Virus record (IMG/VR): IMGVR_UViG_3300010366_000012 | Span: 11,012-75,011 of that record | From: a virus | Lineage: Duplodnaviria > Caudoviricetes | Direction: 5' to 3' (one strand) | DNA length: 64,000 nt | In this document: positions 1,250 to 64,000 of the stretch, one piece after another | How positions within the stretch are numbered: the first letter of the stretch is position 1 | Layout of the letters: each line of letters begins with the position of its first letter | Program-made: the position numbers and the translations under genes | The notes under the pieces: model-generated | The model's input: only the letters and a program-made list of their open reading frames with translations | Databases searched by the model: none | What the model was told of the DNA's origin: nothing

Positions 1250-4200
1250 ATGGCACGCCCGGTCGCGCTCACACCGCTGCGGGCTGCTGCCGCGCGGCGG
1301 ATGCGGCGCACCGCCCAGGCGCTGGACGAAGATCACCCTGAGACGATCGCCGGGGATCACCTGCGGGATGCCGCCCGGGTGCTGGAGCGCGGGTCCGCTG
1401 ATGGAGCGAAGCGGCACCTCGATGCCGCGATGCAGCTGCTGACGCCGCAGTCCCTGCTGCGGCACGGCATCCGCGATGACGAGGGCCACGCGACTGCCAA
1501 GCACCACATGCACGAGGTTCACCGGCATCACCTCGCGGTGCAGGACATCGAGGACACGGCGGGCAGCAACGACCGGCTGGCCGCGATGGCCCGTGCCGCC
1601 CGTGGCCAGCCCGAGCCGATGGAGCCGTTCCACCGGCAGCCGCCCGAGCTGCTCCCGGCCATCGCCGCCACTGGTGATCATGGGAATCGCGTGATCGACC
1701 TGAAGGCCACGGCCTGGGAGCGCGAAATGCGCGACCGGTATGGCAAATGGGCCGCCTCCCCCGACTTCGCGCCGATCACCTCGATGTTCGCTCCGGGCGG
1801 GCCGCACGGCTTCCGCGGCCACTCGATCGGATCGCAGCCGGAGAAGGGCTCGGTGTTCGGCCGTCACCTGAGCATGCACGAGGCTCTCGGCGCGGCCGAA
1901 GCGCTCGGCCCGGGACACCCGAAGCAGGTGGCCAGCGCGCAGATGGCCGAGCGGGCGGGCCTCCCGAAGTTCCAGCGCAAGGTGTATGACCTGCTGCGCA
2001 AGCGCGGCCGGGGGCACTACGGCGCGCTAGTCCTGGCGCGGGCGACTACGCCCGATGTGTTCCGGGCGGGCACGTTCGCCAACAGCAGCCCGGCTGTGCA
2101 GCTGGCGTTCTGGGAGCACGAGCGGCGCAACGCGCTCGGGGAGTGGACGACCGGCGCGGACCCGCACCAGGCACCGTTCGGCTCGAACCTGCGGCCGGGC
2201 AGCCTCAACCACCTGCGCGCGATCGAGGATCTGTCCCGGCTGACCGGGTGGAACGCCACTGATGGCCGCCCGTCCTCAGACACCTTGCGCAACTCGCTGC
2301 ACCACCTGGCGCACGCGCTGGCGCTGCGCGACATGAAGTCCGCCCGGGTGCATATGGCATCGGCCCGGTGGGCCGACGAGCACGAGGCGGGCGGCGCGTA
2401 CACGCCTGAGCTGGACGCGATCGAGCGCTCTCTCGGCCTGGTGAACGTCCACCGGTCGGCCAGGTGGATGCGCCGCAGCGGCGGCCACGGGCCACATGCC
2501 TACGGGCGCACCGGCACGCCGCTGGAGCCGACGCGGGGCGCGATGCACGTGCCGGTCACCGAAATGATGTCCAACGCCACCGAGCTAGCCGCCCCGTTCC
2601 GCTACCGGCACGGCTGGATCAAGCTGGAGGATGCGAGCCCGCTGGACGGGCGGGTGGTCATCGCCAAGGCGGCGGGCGGCGGGCGGGTCGCGGGCGTCTA
2701 TGACCACGCGACCCGGACCGTGCAGCCCCGGCACACCAAGCGGCTCCCGGTCACCGCCGTGCGGAAGGCGGGCGAAGTGATGTCTGCAGCCAAGACGCCG
2801 CGCGGCCTGGCGAAGTACCGGGCCGCGTATGGCGCATATGGCCTGGCTACCGAGCTGTCGGCACGGACAGGAGCACTTGGAACGTACACTAAGACGTGGG
2901 TAAATGGGACTACGGCAACCGTCACGCGAGGGCTAGGCGGCACCTCGGCTCGCCGCGCAGCCATCCTTGCGCAGATTGTGGCGGCCAGGCGATCCACTGG
3001 GCTACGATCCACGGCCGGGATGGGGAGAGCCCTGAGGACTATCGGCCGCTCTGCAACCCCTGCCACATCGCCTACGACGGCGGTCACGCTGGCGAGCGCA
3101 ACGGCCGGGCCAGGCTCACTTGGAACGAGGTTGCTGAGATCAGAAGGCGGTACGCGGCAGGAGAGGGTGGCTACAGCACCTTTGCCCGCGAGTACGGGAT
3201 CGCCCGGTCAGCCATTGCGGACATCATCAAGCACCGTCATTGGGTTGTCCGCTAGAACTCCCTTCTTGGAGCGCACGCCCGCGCCGCGGGGCCGCCCTGG
3301 CGGGCCGGGCCTGTATCACGTCCAGGGCATGGGCCACACCGCCTACCTGCAACAGGTGGTCAAGGCGCTGATCGAGAAGCGCGGCATGCGGCCGGACAAG
3401 GCGTATGCGATTGCCCGCGCGGCGATCCGCAAGTGGGCGGCCCGGTCGAGGCATCCCGAGGTGCGCGGCGCGGCGACCCGGGCCGAGGCCGGGGAGATCG
3501 CCCGGCAGGCCCGCGCCAAGGCGCACACCGCGGCTGCCTGGGAAGTGGCGGACGTCCTGATCGAGCTGGCGTGCGAGCCGATCGAGCTTTTCAACCCCTA
3601 CCATGCGCCACCCGGCGCTGGCGGCGGGCAGTTCACCACGCAGCAGGGCGCGGGCCAGGGGCAGGCCAAGGGCAGCAAGGCCCAGCGCCGGGCCAAGCTG
3701 GTCAAGCAGATCGCCAGCCTGCGGCGGCAGATCGCGGCGCTCCGGGCGCAGCTCCCGTCCACCTCGCCGCGCAAGCCTGGCAAGCCTGGCAAGTCCAAGG
3801 GCAGCACCCCGGCCAAGAAAGGCGCGGGCGCGCAGTCTGCCAAGCAGGCCAGGCAGGGCAAGCAGTCGGCTAAGACCGCGGCGCGCAAGACCGCCTCGGT
3901 GGCCACGATCCATGCCAAGATCGCCGCGCTGCGGGCCGAGCTGCAGGCCGACATCGCCGCGCTGCGGAAGCTGGCCAACGACCAGCCCGCGATCGAGCTG
4001 ATCGGGGACGGCCACGGGCACCACATCCCCGGCACGCCGGACGTCTACAGCCACGGCTGGCGGCCACTGGCCGGGACCACGATCGGGCCTAAGGGCATCC
4101 GCATTCCGGGCAGTGGCGGTGGTCCCCCAAAAGTCGCTAGCGCGGGACGGGTGCGCGCCGCGGTCAAGGCCGCCCGCATCACCAGGCCCGCGGTCACCCC

Positions 4201-10508: not shown

Positions 10509-11704
10509 GCGTAGCGGTCCTGACCCCGTTCACCGGGGATGACGGGACACAGGCCAGCGGTCGCTGGCGGAAGAAACTGCTGCCCATCGGGGAGATCAAC
10601 TACAAGGGCCGGGTGCTGAAGTTCACCCGCGACTACCTGGCCGGGCTGGTGGACTCCTTCCAGCGCCGTGCCTACGACCAGGTGCCGTTCCAGCTGGCTG
10701 ATTCGGCCAACACGCACACGAATGATGTGGAGCGCACCGGGGGCCAGATCACCGACATGTCCCTGGAGCCAGACGGGCTCTGGATCGAGCTGCAGCCCAC
10801 CGAGCGCGGCGCGCGGGTGCTGGCTGACAACCCCGGTGTCGGCGTGTCCGCCCGGATTGTCGAGCAGTACGAGCGCTCGGACGGCGAGCACTTTCCCCGC
10901 GCGGTGCAGCACGTGCTCTGCACGCTGGACCCCCGCATCCCCGGCATGGGCGGCTGGGAAGCCGTCGCAGCCTCCAACGATGCCGCAGAGATCACGATCG
11001 ACCTCTCCGGCGAGCACTTCACAGGAACGGAGATCTCCATGCCGGAGCTGACTAAGGACCAGCAGGACAAGCTGGCCCAGCTGCTGGACCTGGACCCCGC
11101 CAAGCTGGCTGCGCTGGTGGCCAGCCAGGAGGGCGGCGGGATCAGCCCTGAGGCCGTCGCGGCGCTGGACGGTGACGCCGACGCCGACGACGCGGAGGCA
11201 GCCGAGGTGGCCAGGTGGATCGACGGGCTGACCGATGACCAGCTGGCCGAGCTGGAAGCCGAGCTGGAAGCCGAGGATGGCGAGCGCGAGCCCGAGCCCG
11301 CGGCGCTGTCTGGCGAGGACGCCTCCGCGGTGGAGCTGGCCCAGGCCACGGGTGACGAGGCGCTGCGGCAGCTGGCGATCGTCAACGGCCAGCTGGACAG
11401 CGAGCGGTGGCAGAACGAGCGCCGCAAGCTGGTGGCTGCGGGCACCCCGCCGTTCATCGCGGACCTGGCCCAGCCACTGCTGGAGGGCGCGGGCCACGTG
11501 GTGGACCTGGCCAACGGCAAGTCCGTGGACGCCGGGCTGATCGTCCGCAAGATCCTCACCGAGTTCCAGAAGCTCGGCCAGCAGCTCGGCCTCGGCATCG
11601 AGCTGGGCACCGAGGCGGACGAGCCGGAGGACACCACCGTCGAGGACTCCCGCAACGACGTGGTGACCCGGGCCAAGGCGCAGCTGTTTGGCATCCGCTC
11701 ATGA
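10505..11704 (+). CDS. Mu gpI-like prohead protease/scaffold fusion
   Basis: N-terminal LLPIGEINY..FT, VSARI, HVLCTLDPRIPGM motifs; acidic coiled-coil C-terminus; upstream of capsid genes. Confidence 0.8.
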   Translation: MSVAVLTPFTGDDGTQASGRWRKKLLPIGEINYKGRVLKFTRDYLAGLVDSFQRRAYDQVPFQLADSANTHTNDVERTGGQITDMSLEPDGLWIELQPTERGARVLADNPGVGVSARIVEQYERSDGEHFPRAVQHVLCTLDPRIPGMGGWEAVAASNDAAEITIDLSGEHFTGTEISMPELTKDQQDKLAQLLDLDPAKLAALVASQEGGGISPEAVAALDGDADADDAEAAEVARWIDGLTDDQLAELEAELEAEDGEREPEPAALSGEDASAVELAQATGDEALRQLAIVNGQLDSERWQNERRKLVAAGTPPFIADLAQPLLEGAGHVVDLANGKSVDAGLIVRKILTEFQKLGQQLGLGIELGTEADEPEDTTVEDSRNDVVTRAKAQLFGIRS

Positions 11705-58600: not shown

Positions 58601-59059
58601 CTAGAGGGTACCTGTTGGTTCCGACAGAACGGCCACACCGGCCGGGGGCAGGTTGCCCGACCGGATCAGATGGGCCGCCAGGTGCTGTGCTGCCGCTTGC
58701 GCGTCGTCCTTGCCCGGCACCCACCAGCCGAGGGCTTTCAGCACCTCAGGCGTGGCGGTGAGCCGCTCGCGCGGTCCCGGTTCGAGCAGCTGGCACCCGT
58801 TCTTCAGCGCCGCGCGCCGGGCCACTCCGCTCATTTCCAGCGCGAGGTGCGCGTGCGTCTGCGGCCTGCGGCGGTCGATCCGGTACTTCTCCAAGATCAT
58901 CAGCAGTGCCGGTCCCCACTGCTGGCAGAGGTGCTCGACATGATCACCGGCTTCGAGGAACTCGTACTCATCCGCGTAGAACGCCCGGCCCTGCTCCCAG
59001 CAGCAGGCCAGCCCGGTCATGCCACCGCTGTCGATGGCCAGCACGCATGGGGGCATCAT
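58601..59059 (-). CDS. RuvC-like Holliday junction resolvase
   Basis: VLAIDSGG.TG, LE, DDAQAA..H. Confidence 0.8.
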   Translation of the reverse strand: MMPPCVLAIDSGGMTGLACCWEQGRAFYADEYEFLEAGDHVEHLCQQWGPALLMILEKYRIDRRRPQTHAHLALEMSGVARRAALKNGCQLLEPGPRERLTATPEVLKALGWWVPGKDDAQAAAQHLAAHLIRSGNLPPAGVAVLSEPTGTL

Positions 59060-60837
59060 GTCTTGACCCACCTCCCGGGCAGGATCTCGCCGGACCAGGT
59101 GAGCGGCAGCCGGTAGTTTGACCGGTCAGTCAGCACCTCCTGGGCGGCGTGCAGCACGTCGCGTGCCAGGTGCTTCGGGCAGGCCAGCAGCAGCTCGTCA
59201 TGCACCGGCAGCCGGAGGAACTCACCGATCCCGGCCGCATCGCAGGCGATGGCCCCGCGTTTGAGGTTCTCCGCGGCGCTGGATTGGATCTCGTAGTCAA
59301 TCCCGGCGTACTCCCGGCCCCGGTCCACGAACAGCCGCCTGCCCATCAGCGAGTAGACCGCGGGCCTGCCCTTGCCGTACTTGATCTTCTTCACCAGCTT
59401 GTTCGAGCGCATGGCCAGGGTGTGGTAGCGCTGCTTGAACCCGCGGTAGATCGGCTCCAGCTGCTCGACCGACACGCCCGCGGTGACCGCGGCTGTCTCC
59501 ATGCCGGAGCCATAGACCGTGGCATAGGCCGTGTTCTTGGTGGTCGGGTAGCGCGGGTCGGACTTGGCCACCTCTTCGCGGTAGATCTCGCTGGCCAGGT
59601 TGACGAAGAATGACCGCCCGGTGGCATCGCACATGGCGAAATCGGCTATCAGCTGCGCGTCCCCGCTGATGTGCGCGGCCAGCCGCATTTCGATCTGGTC
59701 GGCGTCGATGGTGATCAGCGCCTCATCCTCGCCGGGCACGTAGCTGCCGCGGACCGCTTCCACGATCCGGTCGAACTGGTGCATCGGGGGATCGGTGACC
59801 GAGCTGCGGCTGGTGCGCTGCGCGCCGATGGTGTGGATCGAGTAGTGGATCACATCGTCGGCCCCGGCCATCCGCAGGAACTTCTCCAGGTACTTGCCGA
59901 CAATGCCCTGGCCCTTTTTGGCATCGCGGATGGCAGCCAGCAATGGCGCGGCATGCGGGTAGTGCGCCTGGTATTCCAGCAGCACGTCCTTAGACACCTG
60001 CGGCATGCCCGTGCCGGTGCGGTAGAGGATTGGGACCCCGGCCGCTTCAAGAGCCCGGCCGACCTGCTCATTGGAATCGACCGAATTGATGCCCCACTCG
60101 CCGCGCAGCCAGAACATGGCGCGCTCGGTGAATGCGGTGATCTTGTCAATCCACTCGTGGATATAGGGCCGGTCGATGCGCATGCCCGCATTCATCATCG
60201 ACGCGCATATCGCGGCGTACCGCAATTCCATGTCGTAGACGTTGATGTACTGCCTGGCCTCACCCCAGTGCTTGTCAATCAGCCAGCTGGTCAGCACCGG
60301 GTCGGCTGCGCCATAGCGCCAGTATTCGGGCAGGCTGTCCGGCACCGTGGCCCAAGTCCATTTCTGGGCCTTCATGGCCTCTTTCAGCTCGCGCTCCCAC
60401 GCCGCGGCGGTCGGGTCAACATCCCGGCTCGCCCGCGTTTTCAGGTCGAGCGGGGCCGCGCTATCGACCAGGTGGCTGATCAGCTGGGCGTCATCGAGCC
60501 GGGAGAAGTCCAGCTGCAGCCCGCCCTGGTGATGGATCACCCGCTGGTCATAGTCCATGTTGAACATGCCCAGCCGCCCCGGCCACTTATCCAGCGCTTC
60601 GAGCGCGGGGCCGAACCACTGCGGGCCGAATGCCCAGCCATGCCGCTTGTCACCAAGCTGGATCATGCGCAGCCGGTCTTTGTAAGGCGACAAGCCGCTG
60701 CTCTCGGTGTCGCAGCAGACCATGCCGTCATGCCGCTCGCCCAGCCAGCGCCAGAACTCGCCCAGCGTCTGCATGTCTGATACCCGGTGCAGTCCTACGC
60801 TGTCGAGCACGCCGCCCCTCGGCAGCACTGCTGTCAT
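59056..60837 (-). CDS. polA: family A DNA polymerase with 3'-5' exonuclease
   Basis: CDTESSG (ExoI), DADQIEMR (motif A), KNTAYATVYG (motif B), VHDEL (motif C); RBS AGGGAG before ATG 60837. Confidence 0.95.
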   Translation of the reverse strand: MTAVLPRGGVLDSVGLHRVSDMQTLGEFWRWLGERHDGMVCCDTESSGLSPYKDRLRMIQLGDKRHGWAFGPQWFGPALEALDKWPGRLGMFNMDYDQRVIHHQGGLQLDFSRLDDAQLISHLVDSAAPLDLKTRASRDVDPTAAAWERELKEAMKAQKWTWATVPDSLPEYWRYGAADPVLTSWLIDKHWGEARQYINVYDMELRYAAICASMMNAGMRIDRPYIHEWIDKITAFTERAMFWLRGEWGINSVDSNEQVGRALEAAGVPILYRTGTGMPQVSKDVLLEYQAHYPHAAPLLAAIRDAKKGQGIVGKYLEKFLRMAGADDVIHYSIHTIGAQRTSRSSVTDPPMHQFDRIVEAVRGSYVPGEDEALITIDADQIEMRLAAHISGDAQLIADFAMCDATGRSFFVNLASEIYREEVAKSDPRYPTTKNTAYATVYGSGMETAAVTAGVSVEQLEPIYRGFKQRYHTLAMRSNKLVKKIKYGKGRPAVYSLMGRRLFVDRGREYAGIDYEIQSSAAENLKRGAIACDAAGIGEFLRLPVHDELLLACPKHLARDVLHAAQEVLTDRSNYRLPLTWSGEILPGRWVKT

Positions 60838-60871
60838 TTCCCGTCTCCCTAAATTGCCTGCTCCATCATCC

Positions 60872-63800
60872 ATGCCTGCCATGCCATCCCCAGCCATGCC
60901 GGGCCGAGCCAAACCAATCCGCTGCGGTCCTGGCCTCGCCTTGCCCCTCCCCGCCTGCCACGTCTGACGCCGATGGTAACCGAGAGCCACGACAAGCCGC
61001 GCCTGCCCCGCCAAACCGGTCCCGCCCAGGCCCCGACGCACCTAGCCCCGCCTGCCATGCCATGCCTACCCGAGCCCTGCCGAGCCCTCGCGCACCTAGC
61101 CCTGTCCGTCCTGCCGAGCCCTGGCCAGCGATGCCCAGCCGTGCCACGGCCACGCCATGCCGATCCTGCCTGCCCTCGCCTAGCCCCGGCCATCCTGTCC
61201 CGGTCCCGCCATGCCTGCCGGGCCTTGCCGAGCCATGACCAGCAACGCCCTGCCATGCCCAGCCTGCCCTGCCTAGCCGCGCCGTGCCGTGACCGGCCAA
61301 CCCTAGCCTGTCCTGGCATGCCGAGCCGAGCCACGGCTAGCCGCGCCCGTCCTGCCTTACCGGGCCTTGCCGGTGCCTGCCCCGCCAGGCCGCAGCTCGC
61401 CGTGCCTGCCTGGCCGAGCCACACCATGGCCGTCCTAGCCGCGCCACTGCTAGCCAACCCACGCCTGCCGAGCCGTGCCCTGCCTGACCTTGCCCCGCCA
61501 CGACGGTGCGGGCCGGGCCAAGCCACGCCGAGCCTGCCACAGCTCGCCTGGCCATGCCGGTGCGCGCCTGGCCATGCCGTGACCAGCCTCGCCTGCCTGG
61601 CCAAGCCCAGCCCTGACTCGCCCTGCAGCTCCCTGGCTGCCGAGCCGGGACTTGCCTCCCCGCGCCCAGCCACAGGCCGCCCCGCCTCGCCACGCCTGCC
61701 TAGCCATGCCGGACCCAGGCCCCCACGCCCAGGCTAGCCTGCCGTGCCGAGCCACGCCGTCCCGCGCCAACCCACAGCCTGCCTTGCCCCGCCAATCCTG
61801 GCGTGCCGAGCCACGCCGGGCCGGTCCATCGCCTGCCCTGCCGGTCCTGCCTCGCCATGCCAACTCGCGCCGCGGCACGCCTCGCCTGGCCCGGACAGCC
61901 CTAGCCTGGCCGCTCCTGGCGTGCCACGCCATGGCTGTCCCAGCGGTGCCATGACCTGCCGAGCCTGCCTCGCCTACCCGCAGCCCGCCAAGCCGACGCT
62001 CGCCATGCCTCACCTGCCGAGCCCCGCCCTGCCTGGCCATCGCGCGCCAAGCGCTGCCGAGCCAAGCCGACCCGGGCCACGCCCCGCCTGCCCTGCCAGA
62101 GCGCGCCGGAGCCTGCCACGGCACACCGGGCCATGCCTGCCCTGCCCAGACTCGCCTCAGCCTGCCCAGAGCTGCCCTTCCGGTGCCTGCCCTGCCTGCC
62201 TAGCCTTGCCTTGCCATCGCATGACTTGCCACGCCAATCCTGGCGGGCCATGCCCGGCCGGTGCGACCCGGGCCAAGCCACGGCCATCCCTGCCATGGCT
62301 GCCCGGCCACGCCACTGCTTGGCTTACCGGTCCTTGGCAGTCCTCGCCCGCCCTGGCCACGACTGCCCTGCCGCGCCTTGCCTGGCTTGCCTTGCCATGG
62401 CATCGCAAACCGAGCCTCGCCTCAGCACCCCGCGCCAGTCCTGCCCAGCCCCGCCAGAGCGGGCCAATGTCTGCCTAGCCCCGCCACGCCTGCCGGGCCT
62501 TGCCATGGCATGGCTCGCCAAGCCGCGCCGGGCCATTGCCCGCCTGCCTCGCCCCGCCTCAGCGGGCCTTGCCGTGGCCAGCCAAACCAAGCCTGGCGGG
62601 CCATGCCGCGCCGTGCCAAGCCGAGACTTGCCCACCCGGGCCGAGCCCTGCCTTGCCTGCCATGCCGAGCCCTGCCGAGCCTAACCCTGCCGTGCGGTGC
62701 CGAGCCAAGCCAATCCTGCCCGGCCAGTCCCTGCCAGTCCTGTCCACGCCTAAGCCCACCTAGCCAGGCCGACCTGCCGATGCGCTGCTTGCCTTAGCCC
62801 GCCGAGCCAATCCTGGCACGCCGAGCCCTGCCGTCCCGAGCCGTGCCTACCCTAGCCCTGCCGAGTCGCGCCTGCCCCGCCTGGCCATGCCTTAGCTATC
62901 CTCGCCACGCCGCTCCCCCGCGGGCCATGCCTTGCCTGCCTTGCCGAGCCTGTCCCAGCCAGGACCGGCCAAGCCACGCGCTGGCGTGCCCCGCCTTGCC
63001 TGCCAAACCTAGCCCCGCCGAGCCGCCGCCGAGCCAACGCCCGCCAGTGCCTTCCGCGCCTCGCCTGCCATGCCTCGGCCGCCCTTACCACGGCTCGCCA
63101 TGCCTTCGCACGCCTGCCCTGGCCTGCCTTGCCACTCCGCGCCCTGCGAAAGCGGGCCTAGCCGATCCTGCCCTGGCGGGCCGGGCCTTGCCGAGCCTCG
63201 CCCGCGCACGCCGTGCCCAGCCTGCCCTGCCCTTGCATACCGGGCCGAGCCCCTGCGGACCCATCCATGCCGACCCCCGCCTTGGCACTCCCCGCCTGCC
63301 AGTCCCCGCCCCGGCGCACCTCGCCATGGCGCACCACGACTAACCCACCCGAGCCCTGCCTGCCGCGCCCGTCCTGGCGTGCCACCCCAAGCCTGGACCG
63401 ACCCGACCCGTCCCATCCCCGCCGACCCTTGGCCCGCCGCTCCCCGCCTGCCGTAGCTTGCCGAGCCTCGCCTACCCAAGCCCCGCCGACCCATACCATG
63501 CCTGCCCGGACACGCCCATGCGCACCGAGCCTTGCCAACACGGGCCGCGCCAAGCCAACGATCGCCAAGCCCTGCCTGCCTCGCCATAGCGAACCTCTGC
63601 TGGCCGCGCCTCGCCCAGCCAAGCCTGCCACGCCAAGCCTCGCACCAGCTCGCCTCGCCTCACCCGGCCCGTCCTGCCGCGCCAGCCCACGCCGAGCCCG
63701 GCCATCGCAAGCCATGGCGATCCTGCCGGGCCAGTGCCGCGCGGGCCTCGCCCCGCCGATCCCTGCCTGGCTCGCCGTGCCTAGCGTTAGCTCGCCCCGC

Positions 63801-64000
63801 CGTCGCGCGCCGCGCCATGCCCGGCCTGCCCGTCCCGGCCACGCCGGTCCCTTGCACACCGCCGCAAGCCCAGCCGTAACAAGCCCACCCATGCCCTGCC
63901 TGCCACGCGCCGCCTCGACTAACCTCGCCAGGCCCCGCCTTGGCGCACAGAGCCTGGCCATTCCTGCCTTGACGGTCCCTGCCGAGCCCTCGCTGGCCGA
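60872..64000 (-). repeat. array of ~55 units of (GGY-NN)n pentamers separated by GGCA tetramers; candidate guide-RNA array (VIPR-like), truncated at the window edge
   Basis: + strand parses as [NN-GCC/ACC]x8-15 then TGCC/TGGC; all 16 NN dinucleotides are used; several units decode to known protein motifs. Confidence 0.9.

Follow-up and report, generated by a model that had tools for sequence, protein, structure and literature searches.

VIPR systems and the phage array

VIPR systems were described only in 2026 (bioRxiv 10.64898/2026.04.26.720920, 10.64898/2026.04.26.720927 and 10.64898/2026.10.15.759431). According to these preprints, they comprise a minimal RAMP protein, ‘Vipr’, and guide RNAs, ‘vrRNAs’, made up of 9–16 YNNGG repeats. 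Pairing with DNA is through the NN bases and skips one base, which falls mostly on the codon wobble position; the outcome is transcriptional silencing. Self-targeting does not occur, guides are found in both orientations, and the natural targets so far are satellites, prophages and rival phages. Internal degeneracy of the repeats is frequent, and variants of the NNNGG type have been reported. Here, we describe what appears to be a vrRNA array of this kind on the minus strand of a phage record, IMG/VR record IMGVR_UViG_3300010366_000012. ‘The window’ refers throughout to the 64,000 nucleotides (nt) that we analyzed, positions 11,012–75,011 of that record, and the array occupies window positions 60872–64000. 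The carrier is an uncultivated phage of ~75–80 kb and about 70% G+C, and its host is probably an actinomycete. We put at roughly 0.8 the probability that the region is a staggered-type VIPR array of this phage, that its vipr gene is most likely to be found in the missing few kb immediately upstream, and that it serves as a library of guides against defences and competitors.

The closest described relatives are the ‘staggered arrays’, in which, in the words of the legend to figure S18 of 10.64898/2026.04.26.720920, successive vrRNAs occupy 1-nt overlapping positions. Going by that legend, the likeness extends to GGY–NN pentamers, 9–16 per unit, to the lack of a spacer or tail, to the one-base offset and to carriage by a phage. 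The array described here differs in having more than 50 units, in its putative position as the leader of polA, in the absence of vipr from the contig, and in its more degenerate scaffold. The type II VIPR system of the Escherichia phage SUSP1 (Vipr, vap1 and four vrRNAs; structure PDB 36pp) shares its repeat code and its 1-nt-skip reading with the present array, and its Vipr aligns along its full length with the Vipr family that accompanies arrays like ours. The SUSP1 vrRNAs, however, are separate genes of ~100 nt with an invariant 3′ pseudoknot tail of ~40 nt, whereas the present array is tailless; and they target a satellite recombinase, whereas the targets identified here are host defence genes and polA. 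Finally, orphan vrRNAs of VIPR-null phages and satellites (10.64898/2026.10.15.759431) resemble this array in occurring without vipr on the same record. They are single guides or small arrays directed against REP elements, vipr genes and other vrRNAs, whereas in the present record an assembly break may be all that separates the array from vipr. The kind of array is thus already known from the 2026 preprints; what is notable in this instance is its size, its position ahead of polA, and its guides to DISARM and to a type I restriction–modification (R–M) system. DISARM is not named in those preprints, and a text search of the main ones for anti-defence and host-gene terms found nothing either.

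Grammar of the array

The region stands out by its 5-nt periodicity. Base autocorrelation at lag 5 is 0.51 in 60872–64000, against about 0.27 in coding controls and elsewhere, and in the whole 75-kb contig the periodicity is confined to this stretch. Parsing by a five-phase Viterbi procedure gave 62 runs, 51 of them with 7–16 pentamers and 34 fully clean. Read on the minus strand, a unit is (GG[C/T]–NN)×7–16 closed by the 4 nt GGCA (GCCA in about 10 units); on the plus strand the closure appears as T–GCC, or as TGGC in about 10 units. Because the 4-nt closure shifts the register by −1, nearly all unit lengths are 5k+4 (44, 49, 54, 59, 64, 69 and 74 nt). Each unit is shifted by one base relative to its neighbour: GGCA plus the following G makes a pentamer, and this last G is common to the next unit. 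Units abut with only GGCA between them, and they have no conserved 3′ tail. The 5k+4 grammar fits a staggered vrRNA array as worded in the figure S18 legend, a fit that depends on how the legend is read.

The variable positions carry the diversity of the array. All 16 dinucleotides are used as NN, with an entropy of 3.91 of 4 bits. Pairwise likeness of the units is only 60–75%, which the shared scaffold alone accounts for, and a search for tandem duplications with TRF returned only short, low-score fragments in the array. The first-pass annotation of this DNA, made from the sequence alone, had read the region as runs of pentamers separated by a phase-breaking TGCC or TGGC, with unrestricted NN and no duplicated units, and the parse, the periodicity and the entropy bear it out on each of these points. 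It had also called the trinucleotide near-constant, which overstates the case: GGC makes up 60% of pentamers, GGY 66% and GGN 78%. Non-GGY scaffolds (GGA, GGG, GCC, GTC, GCA and GCT), 34% in all, are commoner in the middle of units (36–48%) than at their ends (24%). The RNA strand is predicted, as in that annotation, to be the minus strand, reading GGY–NN and co-directional with polA. No promoter-like or terminator-like sites were found in 60600–64000.

The same grammar beside Vipr genes

We scanned IMG/VR with a pattern consisting of GGCA, six GGCNN and a closing GGC, and found it in at least 120 contigs that range in G+C from 39% to 73%. Among the matches listed, 108 array-bearing loci served as the comparison set. 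Parsed in the same way, their arrays obey the grammar just described: 79% of internal runs are 5k+4, and GGCA ends 471 of the 524 clean units. They are much smaller, with at most 22 clean units in any of the 108 loci listed, against more than 50 units here.

When all open reading frames (ORFs) within 4 kb of the comparison arrays were clustered, two families dominated, both of them always on the GGC strand. The first, of ~215 amino acids (aa), is present in 82 of the 108 loci, with a median of 128 nt between it and the array. A profile of 35 of its members matches the SUSP1 Vipr protein (PDB 36pp) at full length with an E-value of 1.4e-14, and a single member does so with an E-value of 1.6e-4; the alignment covers the glycine-rich G-loop (GvGEGRP versus GVGDWRP). 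This profile match, together with adjacency to the arrays, ties the grammar firmly to bona fide Vipr genes. The vipr gene was found in 17 of the 18 loci that have at least 3 kb of flank on both sides, and in the comparison loci it lies upstream of the array 66 times, between arrays 18 times and downstream 7 times. The first-pass annotation had invoked VIPR, and this reading is supported: the system exists in the 2026 preprints, arrays of identical grammar adjoin Vipr homologues elsewhere and, as discussed next, guides of the present array match genes in codon phase.

The second family, of ~173 aa, occurs in 67 of the 108 loci, where it accompanies the array and Vipr (alignment A2; e.g. L069:6500–6961 and L110:4125–4598). 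It has no match in Pfam, and is a candidate accessory protein (‘Vap’) of the staggered VIPR type. Its members carry a conserved motif, LH..FEWDD..AA..R..QAR.

Guides and their targets

Guides were decoded by the published 1-nt-skip (xNN) rule, each NN being read as positions 1 and 2 of a codon. A guide of 13 NN at 61466–61534 (minus strand; plus-strand reading DVLWFPTGGGKTE) corresponds to the Walker A motif of DrmA, the helicase of DISARM. In prokaryote genome contigs, one genome per species, this guide has 116 exact 26-base gapped matches, where about 3e-4 would be expected by chance, as estimated from the size of the collection. All 116 are in frame, in ORFs that reach ~1,100–1,300 aa, some of them cut by the ends of the loci. 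Three of the target proteins were tested with PADLOC, and are DrmA (E-values 1e-104 to 1e-240); all 116 are homologous to these three, with a median identity of only 38%. Actinomycetota account for about half of the 80 records listed, of the 116. In array form, the guide is absent from other IMG/VR contigs.

In many of the DISARM loci with the exact motif, in actinomycetes, a UvrD/GajB-like helicase of ~620–700 aa adjoins drmA (L194:3339–5390, L214:5467–7320 and L279:4024–6177). To our knowledge, this helicase is not among the standard five DISARM genes.

A second guide, at 63378–63448 (minus strand), decodes to VT[KN]WRRR[HQ]P[DE]FPAP, an N-terminal helix-turn-helix (HTH) motif of type I R–M methyltransferases (HsdM-like). 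At two mismatches or fewer, it finds sites in 6 of 401 actinomycete genomes, against none for a reversed-pattern control, and its best match is 27/28. The targets are type I methyltransferases by PADLOC (MTase_I; E-values 1e-87 to 1e-205) and by Pfam (N6_Mtase). As a control, 359 guides of other Vipr-linked arrays showed no excess of matches to the drmA or methylase loci.

Other guides point to polA, the gene for a family A DNA polymerase. The guide at 60872–60955 (minus strand), of 16 pentamers and next to polA, decodes to L[IM][IM]Q[IM]GD[KN][KN]AGWSFPP, a variant of the conserved polA exonuclease motif. It matches the polA gene of a relative (L123) at 27/32 positions, with the skipped bases on wobble positions; none of 400 shuffles reaches this score (maximum 24), and a comparison with 119 polA homologues gives z = 8.4. 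At this site, the phage's own polA scores about 23/32 (hand count). A further guide, at 61053–61111 (minus strand), decodes to ..YDLELAYLR, where the polA motif is AYDLELAYARL; it scores 19/22 at the protein level (z = 4.9, p = 0.003) and 18/22 on the DNA of L124 and L125.

Two more guides, read in the RNA sense, resemble motifs of kinases and helicases, and were scanned against five actinomycete genomes. The first, at 62300–62363 (minus strand), decodes to V[HQ]R[DE]L[KN]P[KN][KN]VVR, which corresponds to the catalytic loop of Hanks-type Ser/Thr kinases. At three mismatches it has nine sites in the five genomes, against none for the control, all of the form VHRD[LF]KPxN[VI]..; no exact target was found in them. 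The second, at 63901–63964 (minus strand; IHSAKGLEYDGV), corresponds to motif VI of UvrD-type helicases. It matches the UvrD/GajB-like helicase gene beside drmA at 18–20 of 24 positions, a partial match, and has two sites in the five genomes, against none for the control. Both guide orientations are present in the array, in line with the VIPR preprint.

On its own contig, the array has no evident self-targets: the best match scores at most 0.79, equal to that of shuffled guides. Pooled together, the guides show no excess over shuffles on the contig itself, in 120 VIPR loci or in the polA regions of relatives; only single guides stand out. Taken at the level of sequence, the defence-gene motifs in these guides suggest RNA-guided silencing of host immunity by the phage. 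The array is most likely a broad library for silencing both host defences and competitor phages. A more specific view—that these 50 and more guides form a ‘super-array’, an RNA-guided anti-defence weapon aimed at the DrmA Walker A motif, the HTH of type I R–M methylases and perhaps defence kinases and helicases, with other guides directed against the polA of rival phages—is tentative, and we rate it at slightly less than an even chance.

The polA neighbourhood and the contig end

The last array unit and the start codon of the phage's polA gene (59056–60840, minus strand; Pfam PF00476) are 31 nt apart, with polA lying downstream in the same orientation; to judge by this layout, the array probably forms the leader of the polA operon. 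At its other side the array reaches the last base of the 75,011-bp record, which is linear. The contig end at 64000 is the RNA 5′ side and, since the contig stops inside the array, the observed 3.1 kb is a lower bound on the length of the array, which comprises about 51 units as it stands. In the comparison loci, the usual position of vipr is upstream; here, upstream means beyond position 64000, the last one in the contig.

Several kb appear to be missing from the contig. Its start (G000:C1:1–804, outside the window) cuts a helicase gene, with a Walker A motif, GPTASGKS, among the first residues, and relatives whose polA is 52–58% identical have genomes of 79–83 kb, compared with 75 kb here. 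The remainder of the cut helicase gene probably lies in the unassembled gap, together with whatever sits upstream of the array. In one relative (L123), the comparable gene encodes a D5_N protein of 524 aa, in an operon divergent from polA that begins with a Prim–Pol gene. Attempts to bridge the gap brought nothing: megablast against phages found no match, and no other record carries the exact sequence of the phage's polA product.

VIPR modules do occur next to polA in related phages. In two soil metagenome contigs from JGI, L134 and L144, whose polA is 49–51% identical to that of the phage, polA, vipr (E-value 4e-62) and vap stand in a row and run in one direction. In L134 (688–4144; vipr at 2409–3149), a 9-unit array of the same grammar comes next; L144 (303–3160) breaks off inside vap. 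From this arrangement, we conclude that VIPR modules are in circulation beside polA among phages of this group. L134 carries a compact, complete VIPR module. The closest polA relatives (54–61% identical) have no array upstream of polA, and ordinary genes occupy the place instead.

Alternative explanations

Several observations weigh against a functional, Vipr-served array. Profile hidden Markov models of both array-linked families, run in any frame of the 75-kb contig, found no vipr or vap homologue (best E-values 0.4–1.5), which agrees with the remark in the first-pass annotation that the window contains no RAMP-like gene; and CheckV rates the record as 96% complete. The scaffold is GGY in only 66% of pentamers, below all 61 Vipr-linked loci (minimum 77%, median 91%), a contrast that is inflated because those loci were picked by a perfect-GGC pattern. 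The matches to polA, kinase and UvrD genes are imperfect, and exact targets are lacking for most of the guides tried: exact xNN scans of IMG/VR with four guides found no match, and the guides at 62015, 63223, 63827 and 62244 found nothing in the five actinomycete genomes. Lastly, the staggered arrays themselves come without experimental validation in the preprint.

The best of the competing explanations, although in our judgment an unlikely one, is that the phage is VIPR-null and carries an orphan (‘solo’) vrRNA array. Neither vipr nor vap was found in 75 kb of a record judged nearly complete, hundreds of VIPR-null phages that carry vrRNAs have been described (10.64898/2026.10.15.759431), and the relaxed GGY scaffold would fit a weaker constraint. 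But the contig breaks within the array, on the very side where vipr sits in most loci, and the cut first gene and the larger genomes of relatives indicate that several kb are missing. The published solo arrays are small, in contrast to the more than 50 guides here, and no guide of this array matches the vipr or vap genes of the 82 loci. For these reasons we prefer the explanation in which the array has its own Vipr, and we consider it quite likely that vipr sits in the missing piece, a short way upstream of the array.

Much less probable is decay of the array into an inert remnant, neither expressed nor loaded, and no more than non-coding filler upstream of polA. Its GGY fraction is the lowest of the arrays compared, and the contig shows no effector gene. 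However, NN appears to be kept better than the scaffold in the two best guides, and decodes correctly at non-GGY scaffolds: the drmA guide matches at 26/26 despite two degenerate scaffolds, and the hsdM guide at 27/28 although 7 of its 14 scaffolds are non-GGY (hand count). Small as these numbers are, they argue for tolerance of a degenerate scaffold rather than decay. The 5k+4 register, moreover, is held over 3 kb, and an inert insert of that length is unlikely in a size-limited phage genome.

The view that there is no guide array at all, and that the region is either a simple satellite rich in G+C or a stretch of protein-coding repeats, can be dismissed: ORFs of 100–280 aa do lie open across it in several frames, but a period of 5 is incompatible with a single reading frame, and no frame has the signature in third-position G+C (GC3) found in every real gene of the contig, while the units are not duplicated, and a satellite would not be expected to encode 13 residues of a DrmA motif that recurs exactly in 116 genomes. 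Both readings, and that of a known RNA family, were accordingly rejected, on GC3, on TRF and unit likeness, on the drmA matches, and on Rfam, of which no family matched in the array region.

Proposed mechanism and implications

If the array is a staggered-type VIPR array, it may work as follows. Transcription of the minus strand would start at a promoter past the end of the contig and produce a long leader that runs into the polA operon. At each GGCA register break this transcript would be split, giving more than 50 vrRNAs of 9–16 GGY–NN repeats. Vipr protomers would polymerize on each vrRNA, holding GGY and exposing NN, and the NN bases would pair with DNA with every third base skipped. Because every third base is skipped, the guides would read codon positions 1 and 2 and ignore the wobble. 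The bound complex would then block transcription as a roadblock, as described for SUSP1. Since guides that work in this way read amino-acid motifs, a single guide could serve for widely diverged alleles of a defence gene.

There is a precedent for phages turning RNA guides on their hosts. Vibrio phage ICP1 encodes a CRISPR–Cas system aimed at the host defence element PLE and, like the array proposed here, it is an RNA-guided system of a phage directed against host-resident anti-phage functions. ICP1 uses contiguous spacers and nucleases against a single element, whereas here the guides skip the wobble base, the motifs are conserved across phyla, and silencing is the expected outcome.

The array is by far the largest in the comparison set, and indicates that the staggered format can scale to guide numbers like those of CRISPR. 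It sharpens the question of how guides written in an interleaved code arise in such numbers. If functional, it would give the phage a programmable, escape-resistant means of switching off DISARM and restriction–modification, and its wobble-skipping code would be aimed at whole protein families instead of single sequences. A single guide would then be enough to silence, in many different hosts, gene variants with only about 38% identity.

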